38,370 nt of DNA, from positions 1 to 38,370 of IMG/VR virus record IMGVR_UViG_2645727901_000003. The stretch is one strand, 5' to 3'. This document shows positions 1 through 8,347 of this stretch, in pieces. Both the position numbers and the translations under genes were made by a program. The notes under the pieces were generated by a model. That model ran no database searches. It was not told where the DNA came from and saw nothing but the letters and a program-made list of their open reading frames with translations. Numbering within the stretch: position 1 is the first letter of the stretch; the number at the start of each line of letters is the position of its first letter. The stretch is from a virus (lineage: Duplodnaviria; Heunggongvirae; Uroviricota; Caudoviricetes).

Positions 1-113
1 CGGAAGTCGCTGTCGTTCTCAAAATCGGTGGAGCTGCATGACAAAGTCATCGGGCATTATCTGAACATAAAACACTATCAATAAGTTGGAGTCATTACCC
101 ATTCTGCGTTTCC

Positions 114-908
114 TCACCAAATTCGCTTCGGGCTTGGTGTATTCTCTCCAGCTAACGCTTTTTCATCAGCGGCTATCTGTTGTGATTCTTTATCTGCCTG
201 AGCCTGTGCCAGTGTTGCTGCAGCGTTTTGCTGGGCTACCAGGAGCGAGCGGATTTGCAGCAGCTGGTTCGTTTGAGCACTTGCAAGCTGGTTAGCGGCC
301 TGAATAGCTTCCATTTGCCCTTGTGCGCCGGTTGCCTGAGTTTGCAAATCTGCCAGGTTATCAGCATCGCTTTGCAGTGTTTCTTGCTGTTCATCAAGAG
401 CCTTAAAAACGGCGTCATTGGCCTTTTTACGCGCCTCAGAGCTGTTCTGTTCTGCTTTACGCAGTGCGCTGATTTCATCTGCAGTACATTCAACATTACT
501 GTTAAAGCACGGTGATGAGCGGTAGTAATTCACGTCCTGATAACGTTTCAGATATGAATCAAGACTCCCGGCCTGATTTTTGTAGTAATTAAGAGTGTCC
601 TGCGCCTGCAACAATTTGTTGATGGTTGAATTGGCCTGATCCCAGATATAGGCCGCAGGTGCGACGGTATTTTTGAGCATGTTTTCATACTGCTGCAGCT
701 GCGTCTGGTACTGCTGGATCTGTTTAGTCACAGCCTGAACGTTGTTAACTGCGCTGATTGTGGTCTGAACCACATTAGTGCCATCAATAACGGGAATTCC
801 GGCCTTAACCGGTAATGCCATGACGGACGCCACGAAAGGAACTATTAAAGCTTTTTTAGCGGCTAAAATCCCTCTTTGTAATGAAACCACTCGGAACATT
901 AAATTCAT
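114..908 (-). CDS. trbJ: P-type conjugative transfer protein TrbJ-like (VirB5 family)
   Basis: 264 aa; N-terminal signal-like segment then AGIPVIDGTN, YQDVNYYRSSPC and ANQLASAQTNQLLQIRSLLVAQQNA motifs recalled from RP4 TrbJ; ATG at 908 with GAGGTGA Shine-Dalgarno. Confidence 0.7.
   Translation of the reverse strand: MNLMFRVVSLQRGILAAKKALIVPFVASVMALPVKAGIPVIDGTNVVQTTISAVNNVQAVTKQIQQYQTQLQQYENMLKNTVAPAAYIWDQANSTINKLLQAQDTLNYYKNQAGSLDSYLKRYQDVNYYRSSPCFNSNVECTADEISALRKAEQNSSEARKKANDAVFKALDEQQETLQSDADNLADLQTQATGAQGQMEAIQAANQLASAQTNQLLQIRSLLVAQQNAAATLAQAQADKESQQIAADEKALAGENTPSPKRIW
855..867. promoter_or_regulatory. KorB operator (OB)-like palindrome TTTAGCGGCTAAA
   Basis: Exact match to the IncP-1 OB consensus TTTAGC(G/C)GCTAAA; lies in the 5' end of the trbJ-like ORF. 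Confidence 0.55.
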
Positions 909-989
909 TTGCTCACCTCTTTTTCATCAGTTCAGTAATATTTAACACACTGTCTTTTAACAGACGCAGGTATATAGGAAACCACACAT

Positions 990-1343
990 TTATTTATCCA
1001 AGATTTTATCCATAATGTTCCTTAGTTCTTGCCGAGTTGATTCTATTTTCGCAAGCAAGGTTCTTATCAGGGTGGGTGAAAAATCAACTGTTCGAGGATC
1101 ATTTGCGAGCCATAATTTAAGTAATCCGCCAAGTCTTCCAAGATCAGCGTTTACTCGGCTAAGTTCATTAACCTGTTTTATATCTACGATAGAATCAACC
1201 TGATAACCCATTGCAACTCTACGAACAAAACAGGCAACACTTAATCCAGATGCTTCTGCATTTTCTTGGATGAGAATTTTTTCTTCGGGTAAACAATAAA
1301 CTTTTATTGGCGTACTATTTTTTCTAGTCTGAGTAACTTTCAT
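990..1343 (-). CDS. Putative mobilization/relaxosome accessory protein (MobC-like)
   Basis: 117 aa from ATG at 1343 with GGAGAG Shine-Dalgarno (ORF track extends to 1430); LxRxxxxLxxLxxxL pattern reminiscent of MobC; sits beside the oriT/oriV-like intergenic region. Confidence 0.4.
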   Translation of the reverse strand: MKVTQTRKNSTPIKVYCLPEEKILIQENAEASGLSVACFVRRVAMGYQVDSIVDIKQVNELSRVNADLGRLGGLLKLWLANDPRTVDFSPTLIRTLLAKIESTRQELRNIMDKILDK

Positions 1344-1734
1344 ATAGCTCTCCATACAGGCGGTAGCCTGGCAGAGCAGGACGCCCTTGAGCCGCGATGC
1401 GGCGAATAGGGAGTGGTAAAGTTGGAACACCGTAGCGGTGGGCCTACTTTACATGTCCTGCCCTCCTGTTGCCGTAGTATATCTGTGCACATCAATGTGT
1501 ATTTCAGTGTACAGGATGTGTTTTCTTAGCGTATTAATATAGGATTACTCGGGTAAAGATCTGCAGCAAATGTGTTTCTTGCAAGGAAACTATATTTCTC
1601 CCTTTTGAAAATGACCTTTAGTAGTTATAAATGGGCGTCCACCAACTGTATTTATGTTTCGATATATTGTAAGAAATATTTTATTTTCTCATGCACTTTT
1701 TTACTTACATTGTCAAAGCATGTGCATTGCAGAT

Positions 1735-1747
1735 TTTAGCGGCTAAA
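1735..1747. promoter_or_regulatory. KorB operator (OB)-like palindrome TTTAGCGGCTAAA
   Basis: Exact OB consensus, next to an AT-rich stretch (about 1600..1730) in the origin-like intergenic region. Confidence 0.6.
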
Positions 1748-1960
1748 ATCTTCCTCCCTATGCCTAAAGCTAGGGGCGTACCTCATATGTCATAAAACCT
1801 ACCTCAAGTGTCAATATACCAAACGAGTAAGTAATCTCTTCTTCTGGCGTACAACCATCGGCCTTTGGCCGATTCTAGATTTGAAAGCGCCTGCTCAGGC
1901 AGGTGATTTCAAAGACTGTAGATCCTGAACGATCCTGTAAATACTGCTGAATAGTAAAAA

Positions 1961-2044
1961 ATCGGGCCGCTGTAGCACGCTACCGGGCCGCTATAACACG
2001 CTATCGGGCCGTTGTGACACAATATCGGGCCGTTGTGACACGTT
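1961..2044. repeat. Four tandem 21-bp iterons (putative oriV)
   Basis: ATCGGGCCGCTGTAGCACGCT / ACCGGGCCGCTATAACACGCT / ATCGGGCCGTTGTGACACAAT / ATCGGGCCGTTGTGACACGTT in head-to-tail array; followed by TTATCCTAG (DnaA-box-like). Confidence 0.75.
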
Positions 2045-2795
2045 TTATCCTAGAACCGTTCAAATCAATTCCAATTTCCAGCAATTGCACGGAATCTTCT
2101 TTCAATCTCCGACGATAGTTACGTAAAGTCATATTACTCGTTCCTTCACCGCATACTGCTAATATCAACGTATCCATATACCACCCTCCTAAAGGATTAT
2201 TACTATGGGTTAAGACATGACGAGCGACTGCCTGGCTAATACCATGTTGTAGCCGAGCTATGGGGCCAGGATGATAATAAAATGGCAAATCTTTTTTGAG
2301 TAACATCGCTAATGCAACACCCAGACGGACACGCCATAAACGGCGTTCTCCCCCAGTCAAAGGATCTGGACGCGTCATAGGTGATGGCACTACATGATCG
2401 ATCAGTCCCCCTATTATACAGTCGCCGCTTTTCTCCAGCTCTGGCGTTATAATTTCAACTGTTGCGACGCGCAGATCTAAAAGCAATTTCTGTATACGAC
2501 CATAACTGTATTGTGCATCGGATAGCGTTCGGCGTACTTTCGCTGGATCTACTAATAATTCGATTCCACCATCAGAAATTTCACGACGTTGCTCGGCAAC
2601 ATATAATATTGTCTCTACGATATCGGCATGACGCTGTCCGAGCCGTCCGGTAACACGACAACGACCAAAACTAGTCTCCATCCATTGTCCCTTCACCTCC
2701 TTAGGACGCTGGCTTGGCTGGTACAGAATTACTCGGGCTTGCCAAGCTGTACTTGTGGGTGCCACTTTATTACCAGTTGTCATTGTCAGCGCCAC
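2001..2795 (-). CDS. Putative iteron-binding replication initiator (IncQ RepC-like)
   Basis: 264 aa; C-terminal segment GGWYMDTLILAVCGEGTSNMTLRNYRRRL resembles recalled RSF1010 RepC; iterons directly at its 3' end; overlaps helicase gene end. Confidence 0.45.
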   Translation of the reverse strand: MALTMTTGNKVAPTSTAWQARVILYQPSQRPKEVKGQWMETSFGRCRVTGRLGQRHADIVETILYVAEQRREISDGGIELLVDPAKVRRTLSDAQYSYGRIQKLLLDLRVATVEIITPELEKSGDCIIGGLIDHVVPSPMTRPDPLTGGERRLWRVRLGVALAMLLKKDLPFYYHPGPIARLQHGISQAVARHVLTHSNNPLGGWYMDTLILAVCGEGTSNMTLRNYRRRLKEDSVQLLEIGIDLNGSRIKRVTTARYCVTTAR

Positions 2796-3627
2796 TCCAG
2801 GTAGATGTTCTTTCTTTAGTAAGCTTTTTATTATTCTTCGAGCTGAGCGCCGTTATTTTTAATACTCCCCCCTCATGTCTCTGTAACCAACGATCTGGCG
2901 CACGTTCTCCATAATTTACTTTATTTATTCCAAATCTAACAAATTGACCTCGAACATCATCAGAAATACCATACGTCTTCGCTTCCAAGGCGGTCATGCC
3001 CGCCAGATAAGATTGCCACCGTATATTATCAACCAGGACGCTACTACCCCTGCTTGCCTGCTGTATATCACCAACCCCCATCGTGGCAGCGCCTTTGTTT
3101 GAATGGTGTAGAAATATAATCGAACATCCAGTATCAGCAGCAATACCTTCTAGCTTTCCAATGACTTTGGACATTGCTGCGCTATTATTCTCATCCTCCT
3201 GGTGGAAACGGCGAAGAGTATCCAAAATTATTAAACGTCTACCTTTTGAAACTTCATTGATCAAGTTGCTCCAATCCGGCAAGAAAATATTTGGACACTT
3301 CCCTACCAAAGGTTCGACCAGTAGCTTATCAGCTACAATCTGCTGCTGACGTGCTGTTAGATATTTTCCCAACGCATATAAACGATGGTGAACGATGGTT
3401 TCAGAGTCCTCCACAGGTAAATATGCCACCAACCCAGTCGGATATTCACCAAAGTTTAAAAGATCTACACCACAAGTAATCTGCACAGCCAATTGTAATG
3501 CCAGCATTGACTTTCCAGCGCCTCCCGGAGAAACAATCGCTCCGATAGTACCAATAGCCAAATTAGGCAAGACGTAATCAATTGGTTGTGGCTTAGCTTC
3601 AAATGCTTCCATTATGTTCAATGACAT
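2770..3627 (-). CDS. RepA-like replicative helicase (RecA-fold ATPase)
   Basis: 285 aa; Walker A SPGGAGKS, Walker B-like LIILD; ATG at 3627. Confidence 0.65.
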   Translation of the reverse strand: MSLNIMEAFEAKPQPIDYVLPNLAIGTIGAIVSPGGAGKSMLALQLAVQITCGVDLLNFGEYPTGLVAYLPVEDSETIVHHRLYALGKYLTARQQQIVADKLLVEPLVGKCPNIFLPDWSNLINEVSKGRRLIILDTLRRFHQEDENNSAAMSKVIGKLEGIAADTGCSIIFLHHSNKGAATMGVGDIQQASRGSSVLVDNIRWQSYLAGMTALEAKTYGISDDVRGQFVRFGINKVNYGERAPDRWLQRHEGGVLKITALSSKNNKKLTKERTSTWSGADNDNW

Positions 3628-3632
3628 TGCTG

Positions 3633-3863
3633 TTACCTACCTAAAACAACACCGGGTCTGGCCGCTTTAAACATTGCTGATTTACGATCCGCAATCCACT
3701 GTTCCACTTCGGATAACTGCCATGCAACATTTCGACTAGTAAGTGCTATACGGCGAGGAAACTCGCCTCGCTGTTCAAGGTTATAAATAGTGCGGGCTGA
3801 CAATGGGATCATTTCCAGAAGTGTTTTTCTGTTAATGAGCGTGCTATGTGCCTTTGTTTGCAT
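3633..3863 (-). CDS. alpA: AlpA-family HTH regulator (prophage CP4-57-type / excisionase-like)
   Basis: LSARTIYNLEQRGEFPRRIAL...WQLSEVEQWIADR matches AlpA HTH pattern; ATG at 3863 with perfect AGGAGG (ORF track start at 3884 is a TTG codon). Confidence 0.7.
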   Translation of the reverse strand: MQTKAHSTLINRKTLLEMIPLSARTIYNLEQRGEFPRRIALTSRNVAWQLSEVEQWIADRKSAMFKAARPGVVLGR

Positions 3864-3940
3864 CTGCCTTCCTCCTGTTTCCAATCAGGCCTATACAATG
3901 CCAAGCATTACCACTTGCTAAAACCTATTCATTGGCTAAA

Positions 3941-4912
3941 ATGGTTGACATGAAAATTACTATCTGGGAAGGCTGTGACCTCACAGTTGCAGCTGCAATT
4001 AAATTATTTGTAGAGCGTAGTTATCCGTACTCCATATTTTCACGGAGGTATCCAATACTGCGTCTCATACAGGAAGTTATTGATCCAGCAGTAGCTGCTT
4101 ATGTAAATTCCCTGCCACCAAGTCATAAAGACTACATTTCTGGAGTAAATCTAGGATTTAGTGATGTACTTAAAAAAGTGGGCTTAAACGTCGTAGTACA
4201 GGCACAAAGACTTCTTTTGCGTAATTTCGTTCTGACTTTAGATCAACAAACTTCTCTTGATAAATGCTTTACCGCTACGATTGAGTCTCTTATTGAATTA
4301 GTCAGTGAGTGCGCATCCAAGCGGCCGAAGAAATCCTCTCCTGCAAAAGGAGTAACTATAAATTCACAGCGTAAGCTCGGTTATTGCGAGTTCTGCGGTA
4401 ATCTAACCGAATTTTCCAAGTTGATCAGTGAGATATCAGAATTTGTTGCTAACGATAATGAGTTCCCCGTTCATGAAAAACAGGTCCTTAGTCATCGATA
4501 TTGTTCTGACCATAGGCCCAAACTCACCAATGGTCTATGGAATCCCAAATACAGACAAGGAAAGCGGTCTCTCGAACAGTTCAATAAAGAATTAATAAGG
4601 CTTAGACGGCAATGCGCTAAACCGCATAAAGCTAACGCAAACACAGGGGATATATTGATTGATACCTATTTTCATGAGTGGATGCAGGGTCAAACTTTAA
4701 CCCCAGCAGATCTAGATAAACTTAGGAATATTGCCAGACGAATGGTTGACTCCAAATTCACTGATACTAAGAAAAAAATAATCATATTAAAACACCAAGG
4801 TTTTAACCAGTTTGAAACCGCACAGGTTTTAGAAAAAAATCACTACACAACTATGACAAAGCAGGCTGTGTCCAAGGCCTTAGCGTCTGTGAGGAAAGAA
4901 TTTTATATTTAA
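3941..4912 (+). CDS. Hypothetical cargo protein with Cys-containing central region and C-terminal HTH-like segment
   Basis: AT-rich ORF; GYCEFCGN...YCSDH; C-terminal FETAQVLEKNHYTTMTKQAVSKALASVRK helix-turn-helix-like; start uncertain (ATG 3941 or GTG 3848). Confidence 0.4.
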   Translation: MVDMKITIWEGCDLTVAAAIKLFVERSYPYSIFSRRYPILRLIQEVIDPAVAAYVNSLPPSHKDYISGVNLGFSDVLKKVGLNVVVQAQRLLLRNFVLTLDQQTSLDKCFTATIESLIELVSECASKRPKKSSPAKGVTINSQRKLGYCEFCGNLTEFSKLISEISEFVANDNEFPVHEKQVLSHRYCSDHRPKLTNGLWNPKYRQGKRSLEQFNKELIRLRRQCAKPHKANANTGDILIDTYFHEWMQGQTLTPADLDKLRNIARRMVDSKFTDTKKKIIILKHQGFNQFETAQVLEKNHYTTMTKQAVSKALASVRKEFYI

Positions 4913-5337
4913 AATAGTATATCCACGAGCTATTATGGTGGCAGTTTAAGTCTTAATATCATCCACTTTATTGAATTATAACCAGCCACTTACGAGGGTT
5001 TTTCGCGATTACCCTGCTTCAAATTGATGATTTTGAAAATACAGTATTATAGTTTATTGTTTGTAGCGCAGCTGTAAGCGTTATGCAAAACGGATCACAG
5101 TGATACTACCTCACCAGTAAATCACTGAAGCCGATCTGTAATGACATAGAACGAATTGGTTTTATGGTTATGCAATGGCTCATCCCCTTACTTGTCCCTG
5201 ACCATAAAAAGCATTCGCTTTCCTGAAAGCAAGTCTAAGCCAAGGGGCGTTTACAGTTGTCTTCTCTTGGCTCATTAGGTACTGGCTTAATTATTAGAAT
5301 CATGTCGGTGGCATTTAAGTCCAAATATGCCCAAACT

Positions 5338-5350
5338 TTTAGCAGCTAAA
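5338..5350. promoter_or_regulatory. KorB operator-like palindrome, centre variant TTTAGCAGCTAAA
   Basis: Perfect 13-bp palindrome differing from OB consensus only at the central base. Confidence 0.45.
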
Positions 5351-5489
5351 ATTCGTCTTCTCATGTAGGGTCAAGAAGCTTATGACTTAACCTATTGATT
5401 ATGTGAATTACCTTGTGAGTATTACTCGTAGGATGGAATCTTCCAAAACTCTGACAATTCACTCTGAATGCATGGTAACAAAGAACAGT

Positions 5490-6119
5490 TTAAACCATGG
5501 TCTGTTCAGCGTTAAATTTCTCAAGATAGACTTCCATTTCGCGAGTCCACCTAGGGGTAGGTACCGAGGTGATCATTAGCCAAGGAAACCACCATACAAG
5601 CATGAAGAGTAACATAAGCGGTGCGATCATTTCGGCCGAAGAATGAGAAACTATATACATAATGAATAAGATTAGTAGAACTGTGTTTACAATCTGACCT
5701 ACCAGAAAAAGACGCCAGCGAAAACAATGCCATTTCCTGTTGAACACAATCCGTCCATCCCGTTCTTCGAGCCAGTTACGCCACGGCTTGAGATAACCAG
5801 CCCGCAACCCATAACGATCACACATTATTACAGCCAAATCCTGCAGCCGATAATTATACAAGCCTGTGAGCCGATAAAGGCTGCGCTGACGAAGCTCACG
5901 CTTTGCCAGACGGACCGCATTTTTATTCAAATATGGCTGTGTCAGCATTTGCTCTAGCCGGCGCTTCCTAAGATTGAGTAGTCCACGAAATACACTTCCA
6001 GATTCAGCATTAATTACTCTGTGACGAACTACACCGAGTGCAATATAGATACACAGCAATAGCCAGCCGGTCTTAGGGTATTGATTCATCCATTGTATAA
6101 TTACAGACAACTCAGGCAC
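5490..6119 (-). CDS. Hypothetical membrane protein (cargo)
   Basis: 209 aa; hydrophobic N-terminal segment and two C-terminal TM-like segments flanking a basic soluble region; AT-rich; GTG start with AAAGGA Shine-Dalgarno (alternative ATG at 6089). Confidence 0.45.
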   Translation of the reverse strand: MPELSVIIQWMNQYPKTGWLLLCIYIALGVVRHRVINAESGSVFRGLLNLRKRRLEQMLTQPYLNKNAVRLAKRELRQRSLYRLTGLYNYRLQDLAVIMCDRYGLRAGYLKPWRNWLEERDGRIVFNRKWHCFRWRLFLVGQIVNTVLLILFIMYIVSHSSAEMIAPLMLLFMLVWWFPWLMITSVPTPRWTREMEVYLEKFNAEQTMV

Positions 6120-6173
6120 TTTTATTTTTCCTTTTTATGCAATCCAGATAAAACCAGTAAAGATTCAGTAAAT

Positions 6174-6186
6174 TTTAGCGGCTAAA
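6174..6186. promoter_or_regulatory. KorB operator (OB)-like palindrome TTTAGCGGCTAAA
   Basis: Exact OB consensus about 55 bp upstream of the membrane-protein gene start. Confidence 0.6.
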
Positions 6187-6242
6187 ATTGCTCTCCTGGC
6201 GTAGATAAAAGAAGTATATCCACTTAAATCACTGATTATTAA

Positions 6243-7433
6243 CTACTTACTAGTCCATTCATCAATCATATTCGCCCAATCTTGTAGCATCTCGGCCCTC
6301 TGCTCACGATATTCAGCCTTGTTATAAACAGCTCGTACCCCCTTTTGTTCATGGGCAAGGCACTTCTCAATCCAGTCAGTATTGTACCCGGCCTCATGTA
6401 GCAAGGTGCTGGCAGTACGCCGTAAGTCATGGGGACCAAACTTAGGTAACAAGTCCCCTTCTTTCTGAGCCAGACGATACGTCAGTGTCAAAACCCGGTT
6501 TAAAGTAGCGCTACTCATTGGCGCATCGGAATCGTACCGCGAAGGAAGGATAAAATCAGAGCTACCGGCAAAGGTTTTGAGAGCAATCATAATATCCATT
6601 GCCTGTCTGGAAAGAAAAACCAAATGTGGATTACGTCGTTTCATCCTCTCCTTTGGTATCGTCCATAATGCCTCACTAAAATTGATCTCGTTCCAGGTTG
6701 CGTTAGTAAGCTCACTTTTACGTACCATCGTTAACAGCAAAAGTTTAACCGCTGCTCTGATTGATGGCGTCGTTCCTACCCGTTCCATGTACCGATACAT
6801 CAGACCAATTTCAACTGGCGTCAATGCCCTGTCACGAGGCTCAAATTTCGCTATGCTTGCAGGCCGTACCAGATCAGCGGGATTCTCAACCTTCTGACCG
6901 CGCTCAATAGCCCAGCGATAGACTTGCAATACAATCTCTCTGGCGTGCACAGCTGTCGCCGGTGCCCCTCTCTCGACAATGTTATCGGTTAATGCGCGTA
7001 AGTCTTCATGTGTAATCTCGGTCAATTTCTGCTGCGCAAATTTTGACTTCAACTCCCTTTGATATACCGAACGCCGCATATCACGCGTCGATTCAGCCAT
7101 TTGATAACCGCGTAACCATTTCTCAGCCCATGCACCAAAAGTCTCCGCATCTTTGATACGAGCTTTATCTCTAGCTTTTTCCCTCGCTGGCGATCTTCCA
7201 CTGGCAACCATTTTTTTAGCTTCATGGAGCCGTTCACGCGCTTCTGCAAGCGTGATCCCTCCAACACCATAGCGGCCAAAAGTAACGGTCTCCTGTCTTC
7301 CGTTTATTGAATAGTTATAACGAAATGAAATAGTTCCAGCCGGAGTGACCGCAACATACAGACCATCACGGTCATTAACTTTATAGAGTTTCTCCTTCGG
7401 CTTAAGGTGACGCAGCCTGGTGTCAGTCAACAT
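6243..7433 (-). CDS. int: Tyrosine site-specific integrase (P4-type phage integrase family)
   Basis: 396 aa; N-terminal arm-binding-type domain (LYKVNDRDGLYVAVTPAGTISFRY), catalytic box HDLRRTASTLL and LAHEQKGVRAVYNKAEY. Confidence 0.85.
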   Translation of the reverse strand: MLTDTRLRHLKPKEKLYKVNDRDGLYVAVTPAGTISFRYNYSINGRQETVTFGRYGVGGITLAEARERLHEAKKMVASGRSPAREKARDKARIKDAETFGAWAEKWLRGYQMAESTRDMRRSVYQRELKSKFAQQKLTEITHEDLRALTDNIVERGAPATAVHAREIVLQVYRWAIERGQKVENPADLVRPASIAKFEPRDRALTPVEIGLMYRYMERVGTTPSIRAAVKLLLLTMVRKSELTNATWNEINFSEALWTIPKERMKRRNPHLVFLSRQAMDIMIALKTFAGSSDFILPSRYDSDAPMSSATLNRVLTLTYRLAQKEGDLLPKFGPHDLRRTASTLLHEAGYNTDWIEKCLAHEQKGVRAVYNKAEYREQRAEMLQDWANMIDEWTSK

Positions 7434-7553
7434 GTTTTATTGTTTTCCTTTATCAAAAATACCATGTTGTAAAAAATTCAGAAAACTTGTTTAACTCTCT
7501 GTTTTTAATTGAGTTATAAAAAATAAATACCATAACTCAACCGAAATTTATCA

Positions 7554-7863
7554 CATGGTACTTTTTCAAACCTGAATTCGAAACCAGAGAGTACCATCAA
7601 AAATTCCATTGAAAAAACCGTGCTTCCCGTTGCTAACAGCTGCCAGAAAGTGCCAGATACAAAAACAAAAAAGCCCGCAGTTACGCGGGCTTAGAGGTAC
7701 TTTACTGCTTTTACGTGCAGGCTGTTGCCAGACGTTAAATCATTCCCACTCAATTATTTACGGACAACATAAGTAATTGACTGACAACAACTTTTAAAGA
7801 AACAAAATTTCCAATACCGTTTTATATACCGTCGCCGGAAATCAGTACCATGAAAAATGCCAT
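7554..7863. repeat. GTACCAT-containing direct and inverted repeats (candidate integrase arm sites / att region)
   Basis: AGTACCATCAAAAATTCCAT (7590..7609) vs AGTACCATGAAAAATGCCAT (7844..7863), 17/20 identical; inverted copy CATGGTACTTTTT (7554..7566). Confidence 0.4.
7663..7695 (-). terminator. Intrinsic terminator closing the prophage lysis operon
   Basis: GCCCGC-AGTTAC-GCGGGC hairpin followed on the minus strand by UUUUUUGUUUUUG. Confidence 0.7.
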
Positions 7864-7864
7864 G

Positions 7865-8347
7865 TCACCTGGTCAGCGAATCGTACTGCTTTTCACAGAC
7901 TCTTCCTGCTTCGGCTGCCCGATCAGCGTACTCTGCCAGTTGTCGGTTTCGCTCGAGAGATTTGCTGAGCAAGTCGGCAAGCAAAACACCGGTGTCTGCG
8001 GCTGACGGCCCAGCGCCGACAATGGCGTTATACTGCCTGAGCTGCTCACGGATGGCAACGAGCTGTTGCTGCAACCTGCCAGCGCGAGCGGCAGCATCAA
8101 GAGCATCATTGCGCGCCTGGTCGATCCTCTGCTGCGCTTTACGTTCATTGATTGCTTTCTCCTGTTCGTCGTGCTGACGAGCTTTATCATCTTCGGTTTT
8201 ACGGTCTGTCTTTGCCTGCGCATACCCGGCGTCATACTGTCGGCTGCCATGAACATTCCAGGCAACAACGCCGACGATCACCAGAGCAGCAAGCATCGCC
8301 ACGATAAGCAACTGTTTCCAGTACGCTTTCATGAATGCTCTGATCAT
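7865..8347 (-). CDS. Rz-like i-spanin
   Basis: 160 aa; N-terminal TM anchor then charged coiled-coil region; ATGA overlap with endolysin stop. Confidence 0.65.
   Translation of the reverse strand: MIRAFMKAYWKQLLIVAMLAALVIVGVVAWNVHGSRQYDAGYAQAKTDRKTEDDKARQHDEQEKAINERKAQQRIDQARNDALDAAARAGRLQQQLVAIREQLRQYNAIVGAGPSAADTGVLLADLLSKSLERNRQLAEYADRAAEAGRVCEKQYDSLTR
7873..8109 (-). CDS. Rz1-like o-spanin lipoprotein embedded in Rz (+1 frame)
   Basis: Internal start giving MMLLMLPLALAGC lipobox; 78 aa. Confidence 0.5.
   Translation of the reverse strand: MMLLMLPLALAGCSNSSLPSVSSSGSITPLSALGRQPQTPVFCLPTCSANLSSETDNWQSTLIGQPKQEESVKSSTIR

Follow-up and report, generated by a model that had tools for sequence, protein, structure and literature searches.

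The DNA analyzed here, referred to as the window, is a stretch of 38,370 nucleotides recorded as viral and assigned to the Caudoviricetes (IMG/VR record IMGVR_UViG_2645727901_000003, positions 1 to 38,370). Judging by its sequence, positions 100-7754 are the integrase-proximal half, from trbJ to int, of a PIME1-family integrative mobilizable element at guaA. Within that half lie the genes for a 323-amino acid (aa) protein and a 209-aa membrane protein, which an earlier reading of the bare sequence (the original prediction) had taken for AT-rich cargo beside an integrase, bracketed by operators for KorB of IncP-1 plasmids, in a setting that is a frequent home for defense or exclusion functions. 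Both open reading frames (ORFs; 3941-4912 on the plus strand and 5490-6119 on the minus strand) are real, and RefSeq annotates both in E. coli. The features on which our argument depends are the following, with OB denoting a KorB operator.

855-867, no strand: OB inside the first codons of trbJ (exact match)
1735-1747, no strand: OB upstream of traJ, in the oriT-oriV intergenic region (exact match)
3915-3942, plus strand: sigma-70-like promoter of the regulator gene, TTGCTA-16-TAAAAT (promoter scan; 14-locus alignment)
3941-4912, plus strand: PIME1 hallmark regulator ('LuxR-family'), 323 aa (ORF list; homologues; RefSeq E. coli annotation at the same position)
5044-5279, no strand: conserved non-coding block in the 577-bp spacer, 85% identical to the block of the sister element L078
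5338-5350, no strand: OB TTTAGCAGCTAAA, with a central A, in the spacer where the regulator and membrane genes converge (16-bp form TTTTAGCAGCTAAAAT)
5490-6119, minus strand: membrane protein, 209 aa, GTG start, slot cargo (ORF list; RefSeq E. coli annotation at the same position)
6174-6186, no strand: OB TTTAGCGGCTAAA, upstream of the membrane gene, 55 bp from its start, and 57 bp past the stop of int (exact match)

Identity of the element

The PIME1 subfamily of Pseudomonadota integrative mobilizable elements (PIMEs) was described by Perta et al. (bioRxiv 10.64898/2026.01.12.698999), and the background in this paragraph comes from that preprint. The subfamily is defined there by a luxR-family regulator gene divergent from alpA and by core genes co-oriented with int. 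Excision of PIME1 elements is triggered by the IncP-1 plasmids pB10 and pKJK5, which induce an E. coli PIME1 without mobilizing it. The Morganella PIME1 no longer excises, replicates or transfers once luxR, alpA or int is deleted, and for PIME1Mm a drop in pB10 copy number and small colonies were reported, solely when the PIME excises and replicates. The experiments concern the RHB23-C07 and NCTC12028 elements. PIME1EcRHB23-C07 is reported to carry Lamassu, a system named 'RHB_A' is described that acts on coliphage HK578, the Morganella element has a restriction-modification system in the position between regulator and integrase, and oriV, with iterons, is placed downstream of repA. The describers of the PIMEs leave helper sensing and the cause of the helper copy-number drop unexplained.

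From 100 to 7754 the window is 99.7% identical to a ~22-kb chromosomal island adjacent to guaA in E. coli RM10042 (L001), and a matching island is present beside guaA in ~30 further complete genomes. The gene set that marks a PIME1 element is int, alpA, a replicase, trbJ and trbL; the first four are within the window and trbL was found in L001, which is a complete sister copy and also encodes the Lamassu proteins LmuA/B/C. In the ORF list trbJ, traJ, repA, alpA, the membrane gene and int are all on the minus strand, the core genes thus being co-oriented with int, and the 323-aa gene alone is on the plus strand, divergent from alpA (3941-4912, plus, versus 3633-3884, minus). Integration at guaA is seen in L001 and L076, where guaA adjoins int; the window keeps just the terminal ~15 nt of guaA homology (to 7754), after which prophage begins. 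An IncP-type oriT/traJ module was recognized by TraJ (NF010451, 159 bits) and the traJ-II RNA (RF01760). The backbone order is trbJ, traJ with its traJ-II leader, the 21-bp repeats, a 264-aa ORF, the RepA helicase, alpA, the 323-aa gene, the membrane gene and the integrase, and its features other than those already given are as follows.

100-7754, minus strand: PIME1 half-element plus attachment-site (att) copy of the guaA 3' end (identity to L001; gene set matching the PIME1 description)
114-908, minus strand: trbJ, VirB5-type (DNA 93% identical to pMCR_1511 trbJ)
990-1430, minus strand: traJ, oriT-binding relaxosome protein (NCBIfam NF010451, E 4.8e-47)
1365-1463, minus strand: traJ-II RNA leader of traJ (Rfam RF01760, 83.5 bits)
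1961-2042, no strand: four 21-bp direct repeats, iteron-like, a candidate oriV downstream of the repA operon (repeat search)
2001-2795, minus strand: 264-aa ORF overlapping the end of repA, beside the iterons (without Pfam or NCBIfam match)
2770-3627, minus strand: RepA-family helicase, AAA_25 (Pfam PF13481, E 2.7e-29)
3633-3884, minus strand: alpA, AlpA-family helix-turn-helix (HTH) protein, divergent from the regulator (Pfam PF05930, E 7.5e-13; RefSeq version 231 nt)
6243-7433, minus strand: tyrosine integrase with P4-type arm, central and catalytic domains, targeting the guaA 3' end (Pfam PF00589, PF13356, PF22022)

The element resembles PIME1EcRHB23-C07 in its guaA insertion, int, luxR/alpA pair, repA with iterons, IncP traJ/oriT, trbJ(-trbK-trbL) and co-oriented core, and the likeness to PIME1 extends to the 22-kb sister copy with Lamassu and to a spread over E. 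coli, Shigella, Citrobacter and other genera. It differs in the state of the window copy, which IS1 interrupts shortly after trbJ and which a prophage separates from guaA. A second point of difference is that the available preprint text reports neither KorB operators nor the membrane gene (bioRxiv 10.64898/2026.01.12.698999).

A more distant comparison is with GIsul2, a guaA-integrating mobilizable element with sul2, which shares an 87% identical integrase, alpA, a RepA helicase, trbJ-trbK-trbL and an OB at the start of trbJ. In contrast to the window element, GIsul2 is without a luxR-type regulator and without an OB near int, and its IncQ-type RepC is unlike the 264-aa ORF of the window. The latter ORF (2001-2795) is found at 63-98% identity across many PIME1 loci and may be an unrecognized initiator; its identification as IncQ RepC was considered and was unsupported (BLASTP against GIsul2 RepC, E 5.9).

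The regulator gene

Full-length homologues of the 323-aa protein form 373 clusters at E <= 1e-3 across the Alpha-, Beta- and Gammaproteobacteria. From these three classes we recovered 74 loci, each extending no more than 10 kb from the regulator gene in either direction, in which the gene adjoins alpA and lies near int. On this comparative evidence the 323-aa protein is a conserved core gene of PIME1, the 'luxR' hallmark, and not the cargo that it had been taken for; its counterpart in the family is the gene whose knockout abolishes excision, replication and transfer. The original prediction had itself named homology to housekeeping or plasmid maintenance proteins as the observation that would speak against cargo, and homology to element-maintenance proteins is what was found for this protein.

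The low GC content that had suggested cargo was borne out for the regulator gene (39.2%) and for the 577-bp spacer between it and the membrane gene (38.1%), as compared with 43-47% for trbJ, repA, alpA and int. It was not borne out for the membrane gene, which at 44.6% is not low against its neighbors. The regulator gene is lower in GC than int and than repA in 44/44 loci, the mean gap being 5.7 and 6.6 points, and over the hosts of those loci its own GC spans 39% to 58%. This argues that the dip, which recurs in every lineage, is intrinsic to the gene and not a sign of recent acquisition.

RefSeq names the protein hypothetical or 'LuxR family'. Its layout consists of a helical N-domain at ~1-127, a CxxC...CxxH center and a C-terminal HTH at ~275-316, the last two corresponding to the Cys motifs and the HTH-like helix pair noticed originally. 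Alignment of 26 diverse homologues revealed that C124, C149, C152, C188 and H191 are invariant, and the residues of the two motifs, C149-x2-C152 and C188-x2-H191, are all kept in the 40%-identical sister in L078. The invariance of the CxxC...CxxH arrangement suggests a metal site, probably of the Zn type. In the AlphaFold model (mean predicted local distance difference test score of 74.6) the N-domain and the C-terminal helical domain are confident and the center is poorly modelled. Fold matches were to HTH proteins and were confined to that part of the regulator, the protein has no sequence relative in PDB, and relatives of the N-terminal helical domain and of the CxxC...CxxH center were not detectable by sequence and fold searches. 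Pfam GerE, the LuxR/FixJ profile, was not matched at E <= 0.1; together with the HTH-only fold matches, this indicates that 'LuxR family' is a fold-level label for the HTH alone. In comparison with LuxR/FixJ (GerE-type) and sigma-70 region 4 regulators, of which the LuxR/FixJ type usually has a receiver or ligand-binding N-domain, the protein is without a receiver or autoinducer domain.

Scans of the regulator and the membrane protein produced nothing above threshold in Pfam, NCBIfam and PADLOC, and weak matches to DrmE_C, RecR_ZnF and DUF2207_C fell under the cut-off. The earlier remark that neither protein belongs to a recognized family therefore stands for these three collections; it does not stand for the 323-aa protein as such, given its status as PIME1 hallmark.

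In the aligned alpA-regulator intergenic region of 14 loci, the elements TTGnnn-16/17-TAnnAT are kept. In the window the -10 (TAAAAT) overlaps the annotated ATG of the regulator gene, and two relatives (L025 and L036) have lost the first ATG and retained the -10. The real start is therefore probably the ATG at 3950, from which, on the same alignment, the mRNA may be leaderless.

KorB operators in the window, in relatives and in helper plasmids

In IncC-KorB partition, KorB serves as the ParB protein; it is also a cytidine triphosphate (CTP)-dependent sliding clamp that silences promoters from near or distant OBs, which are placed 4-10 bp, or 45 to >1000 bp, upstream of the repressed promoter (McLean et al. 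2025, PMC11790492). As an OB we took the 13-bp palindrome TTTAGC(G/C)GCTAAA inside a 16-bp symmetric site. The pattern TTTAGCNGCTAAA is found exactly at 855, 1735, 5338 and 6174 of the window, four occurrences versus 0.09 expected, and four were reached in 0/100 shuffles. The sites at 5338 and 6174 are those that the original prediction had pointed out; it was correct on both and understated the case, as the two at 855 and 1735 had gone unmentioned and the sites are conserved family-wide. The central base is G at 855, 1735 and 6174 and A at 5338. The sites extend to a 16-17-bp palindrome, (A)TTTTAGCSGCTAAAAT (16-17-bp form, ATTTTAGCGGCTAAAAT), and the same motif is contained in the KorB OB substrate oligo, ATTTTAGCGGCTAAAAG, of McLean et al. 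2025 (PMC11790492). On the minus (traJ) strand, a TTGACA hexamer is located 18 nt downstream of the OB at 1735.

The 74 related loci contained 120 exact OB sites over 1.29 Mb. In the gaps between regulator and int there were 44 sites in 65 kb, as compared with 0.004 expected, and at least one exact OB was present in this gap in 40 of 61 loci, lying <=130 bp from the int stop in 30 of the 61, as does the window site at 6174. The 13-mer is exact while its flanks are unalignable between lineages of the three proteobacterial classes, and from these alignments we conclude that the sites are under selection. Their distribution follows that of the IncP-1 transfer gene, with exact OBs in 29/30 loci that have an IncP-1-like TrbJ (>= 45% identity) versus 5/18 without one. 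In L078, whose regulator is 40% identical, the same four-site layout was observed, with two OBs bracketing the slot cargo. Relatives without an OB had no common alternative palindrome.

Genes for KorB, IncC and KorA were not found by tblastn in the window or in 73/74 related loci (with flanks of <=10 kb), the sole exception being one weak partial KorB match of 33% identity in L041. The KorA operator core TTTAGCTAAA was not found in the island, nor was a KorC-like palindrome. The motif is abundant in plasmids of the helper type: pMCR_1511, an IncP-1-like plasmid, has 12 exact OBs with the same extended motif, and pKJK5, a proven PIME1 inducer, has at least 9. That GIsul2, which has a related integrase and no regulator, has an OB at the trbJ start only indicates that the int-proximal OB is specific to regulator-bearing elements. 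A clamp-locking domain common to the regulator and to KorA or TrbA of pMCR_1511 was considered and rejected (hhalign probability of 2.7% and 1.4%).

The membrane gene and the regulator-integrase slot

The membrane character assigned to the 209-aa protein was confirmed. A hydrophobic helix is present at its N-terminus and two strong transmembrane helices at its C-terminus, with a basic region of ~95 aa (+13 net charge) between them that is predicted to be cytoplasmic. Homologues were found in 28 clusters, exclusively from Enterobacterales, and an exhaustive profile search of 1.84 billion proteins yielded 55 representatives, all but one of them short (41-256 aa) and with a single matched stretch. 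Among the PIME1 loci, the gene is limited to the window lineage and close relatives (L001-L007, L009). Plasmid-borne homologues are solitary accessory genes. In small colicin-type plasmid contigs (L084-L086), a 55%-identical homologue was observed tail-to-tail with the gene for a DUF6710 protein, beside resolvase and colicin M genes, and in Pantoea contigs the partner of the homologue is a different protein of 225-278 aa.

In other PIME1 loci the gap between regulator and integrase is occupied by other genes, and PADLOC identified a dGTPase (L008), GajA/GajB of Gabija (L022), a type III methyltransferase (L047), PDC-M12A/B, which is AbiL-like (L048), an HNH effector (L021) and PDC-M18A (L029). 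The E. coli S30-type sister L078 has a small ORF and an EexN-family lipoprotein gene there. By its gene content, the regulator-integrase gap of PIME1 is a second defense-gene slot. The defense role that had been suggested for the two window proteins did not emerge from PADLOC, which gave no match for either, in contrast to proteins in the same slot of sister elements. As defense and exclusion genes fill the same gap in relatives, it is reasonable, on positional grounds, to guess at such a role for the membrane protein.

The spacer between the regulator and membrane genes contains a block of 236 bp (window 5044-5279, L078 4001-4237) with 85% identity although the two regulators share just 40%. 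In L078 the block sits before the small ORF and the EexN lipoprotein gene, whereas the same strand of the window has nothing after it. An Rfam search with the block gave no match, and its folding was no better than that of shuffled sequence (z of -1.06 and -0.38). We also considered whether the spacer is a decayed gene, for which there were no tblastx matches, or a remnant of DUF6710 or other partner genes of the membrane-protein homologues, which was ruled out by comparison.

Flanks of the element

Positions 1-99 of the window are probably the right end of IS1, which abuts the trbJ stop codon at 114. Base 100 is where homology to the intact island begins, so the PIME of this genome has been broken, and perhaps shortened, directly after trbJ; the window contains neither trbK and trbL nor the accessory region. 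At the other end, a prophage (7755-38370) comes immediately after the att copy of the guaA 3' end, at the point where other genomes have guaA, with a lysis cassette at 7865-9521 and a tail-fiber or beta-helix protein at 9666-12377. The guaA site thus appears to be occupied in tandem by a PIME and a phage.

The trbJ of the window is 93% identical in DNA and ~92% in protein to that of pMCR_1511 (L077, NZ_KX377410, 48862-49543), and the traJ region shows a lower identity of 68%. The pMCR_1511 clade of Enterobacteriaceae IncP-1-like mcr-1 plasmids is a candidate for the mobilizing helper of E. coli PIME1.

Proposed function and alternatives

We hypothesize, with a probability of about 70%, that the region is the control and slot end of a PIME1 element, composed of a core-switch regulator, exchangeable membrane cargo and orphan sites for the KorB of a helper plasmid. 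The regulator, a putative Zn-binding protein with an HTH of the LuxR/sigma-4 type, would be expressed from its near-consensus promoter and would turn on excision and replication when an IncP-1 helper is present, a role that we assign to it because of its homology with the tested member of the family from Morganella. The membrane protein would most likely be a single-gene membrane defense or exclusion factor, one of the exchangeable cargoes of the slot. The palindromes would be orphan docking sites for the KorB of the helper; since no korB was found in the element itself, they would act only with a helper in the cell. On arrival of the helper, KorB would load at four places in the backbone. The IncC-KorB machinery of the helper may then partition the excised, replicating element, and the element may compete with or titrate that machinery, which would account for the lowered helper copy number and the small colonies that were reported with a PIME1. 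KorB might further silence or insulate trbJ, the traJ promoter, the membrane gene and the convergent regulator/int junction. As the int-proximal OB is usually in a short gap between convergent 3' ends, its location is more in keeping with a site for loading, or one resembling a centromere, than with an operator of the classical kind. In our analysis the docking of helper KorB is the best-supported function of the sites, with partition piracy and incompatibility as its likely outcome and silencing or insulation as a further one. The analysis establishes which element this is, how its genes and sites are conserved and distributed, and the lack of korB; from these, the binding of KorB and all of its effects are inferred.

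A precedent for such piracy is SGI1, in which mimics of the IncC parS bind the ParB of the helper, stabilize replicating SGI1 via helper ParAB and destabilize the helper in a replication-dependent manner (NAR 2024, PMC10954446). Both SGI1 and the element described here carry sites of the helper's ParB type (four OBs in the present case) and no ParA/ParB of their own, and PIME1Mm shows a comparable replication-dependent helper drop. The two systems differ in the helper, which is IncA/C for SGI1 and IncP-1 here, in the site, a 22-bp IncC parS as opposed to a 16-bp OB, and in the number of sites, two as opposed to four; in addition, the mimicry in the present element is predicted from sequence. 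Unlike in SGI1, transcriptional effects would be expected, because KorB is also a long-range silencer and a CTP clamp. With the KorB-OB regulon of IncP-1 plasmids RK2/RP4 (PMC11790492) the element shares the 13/16-bp palindrome, the position at the trbJ start and the occurrence of sites both near to and far from promoters. It differs from that regulon in that the island has no korB, incC, korA or KorA operator and its sites flank an integrase and a regulator that is not of plasmid type.

Several points weigh against the proposal of a switch, cargo and helper-KorB sites. IncP-1 global regulators are repressors, and as KorB is a repressor, induction is not explained by KorB alone. The relation of the OB at 6174 to promoters is ambiguous, as it either follows one promoter-like site or precedes another, and the OB at 5338, like those of many relatives, sits where two genes converge with their 3' ends, a location in which a promoter would not be expected. 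The central A of the 5338 site is a minority form (central C/G in 90/101 and A/T in 11/101 sites of relatives), and its affinity is uncertain. No exact OB was present in the gap in 21/61 related loci. The tie of the regulator to the Morganella knockout gene is by family definition and not by direct identity. As for the membrane protein, it had 0 PADLOC families at E <= 0.1 (as did the regulator, with PADLOC 2.0), no Pfam match above threshold and no relative of solved fold, and the label of defense or exclusion factor, while plausible, derives only from its location. Lastly, KorB, operators and ParB are nowhere mentioned in the preprint text that was available (bioRxiv 10.64898/2026.01.12.698999).

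One alternative takes up the question of induction directly and holds that KorB itself is the helper signal, the arrival of an IncP-1 plasmid being read, by way of KorB-CTP clamp loading, by a module peculiar to PIME1 that comprises the regulator and the operator at the convergent junction of the regulator (or alpA) and int. The inducers pB10 and pKJK5 belong to different IncP-1 subgroups (beta and epsilon) and induce the E. coli element without mobilizing it, and this suggests a signal that is conserved across IncP-1, as the KorB/OB pair is. In one version, the clamp would act as a roadblock or insulator that halts read-through from the constitutive regulator unit into antisense int. In another, the Zn/HTH regulator would trap the sliding clamp in the manner of KorA and TrbA, converting the repressor into an activating cue. 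We regard a signaling role of this kind as unlikely.

A second alternative concerns the membrane protein, which could be an accessory factor for tyrosine recombinases or for maintenance of the excised circle, acting, for example, by tethering or recombination control. In each of three independent settings (the window, the Pantoea plasmid L082, and L087/L088 beside a Rep3 replicon), the gene comes immediately after a tyrosine recombinase gene and has the same orientation, and the large basic domain, predicted to be cytoplasmic, could bind nucleic acid. However, other homologues are solitary or beside colicin, Abi or AAA-ATPase genes with the recombinase absent, most PIME1 elements are without the gene, and the family is very small. 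We consider such a function doubtful, and continue to favor exchangeable cargo of the slot.

It might be argued that the operators are inert relics that were inherited with the IncP-1 modules (trbJ-trbL, traJ-oriT). For the OB in trbJ this is plausible, since it is placed inside the first codons as in pMCR_1511, pKJK5 and GIsul2 and, within DNA 93% identical to that of the plasmid, could be a matter of simple inheritance. It is not plausible for the int-proximal OBs. These sit beside a P4-type integrase and the regulator, a position without counterpart in the IncP-1 gene order, they have remained exact across three proteobacterial classes, and they are absent from the regulator-less GIsul2; OBs are also missing from most loci without an IncP-1-type TrbJ. 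As an account of the sites as a whole, inheritance of inert sequence is in our view quite improbable, and sites retained for helper KorB remain the preferred explanation.

We give similarly little credence to the idea that the palindromes are operators of the 323-aa HTH protein, either instead of or in addition to KorB, whose specificity it would mimic and with which it might compete on the helper. The co-occurrence of the int-proximal OB with the regulator gene is in keeping with this idea, GIsul2 having the trbJ OB alone, as is the location of an OB <=60 bp from the regulator stop codon in 15 loci. There is also an hhalign alignment of the RQAVSKAL recognition-helix segment with the HTH of KorA, which is non-significant (2.7% probability). 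Yet the motif equals the helper's own KorB sites over 16 bp, and the DNA-binding domain of KorB has a ParB-type fold that is unrelated to LuxR/sigma-4 HTHs. Moreover, the regulator had no similarity to KorA or TrbA, the two proteins compared, and its promoter region has another conserved motif with a half-site resemblance only.

Least credible is the view with which this locus was first approached, that both genes are AT-rich defense or exclusion cargo beside an integrase and that the operators merely bracket the insert: a regulator gene and spacer 4-8 GC points under their neighbors, the absence of both proteins from Pfam, NCBIfam and PADLOC, a regulator-int gap that is a real defense hotspot in relatives and a second lineage (L078) in which two operators bracket the gap cargo would all agree with it, but the 323-aa gene is universal in the family, adjoins alpA and has its GC dip in all loci compared, its family counterpart is essential for the element life cycle, and the GC of the membrane gene is not low.

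Significance

PIMEs are newly recognized and very widespread, with about 1,100 in RefSeq; they carry genes for defense and resistance and rely on IncP-1 plasmids of broad host range. Both the element and its regulator have already been described; the orphan KorB operators are absent from the descriptions consulted, including the available text of the preprint. For annotation, the 323-aa gene should be named a PIME1 regulator and not cargo, and the regulator-integrase gap is worth mining as a slot for defense genes. The conserved orphan operators provide a molecular handle on helper sensing and on the depression of helper copy number. If KorB were the signal, PIME1 would be the first integrative mobilizable element shown to sense its helper via a ParB-type silencer and not via an activator such as AcaCD. 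If the docking of helper KorB proposed here is true, centromere piracy of the SGI1 type would extend to the KorB clamp system of IncP-1 plasmids.

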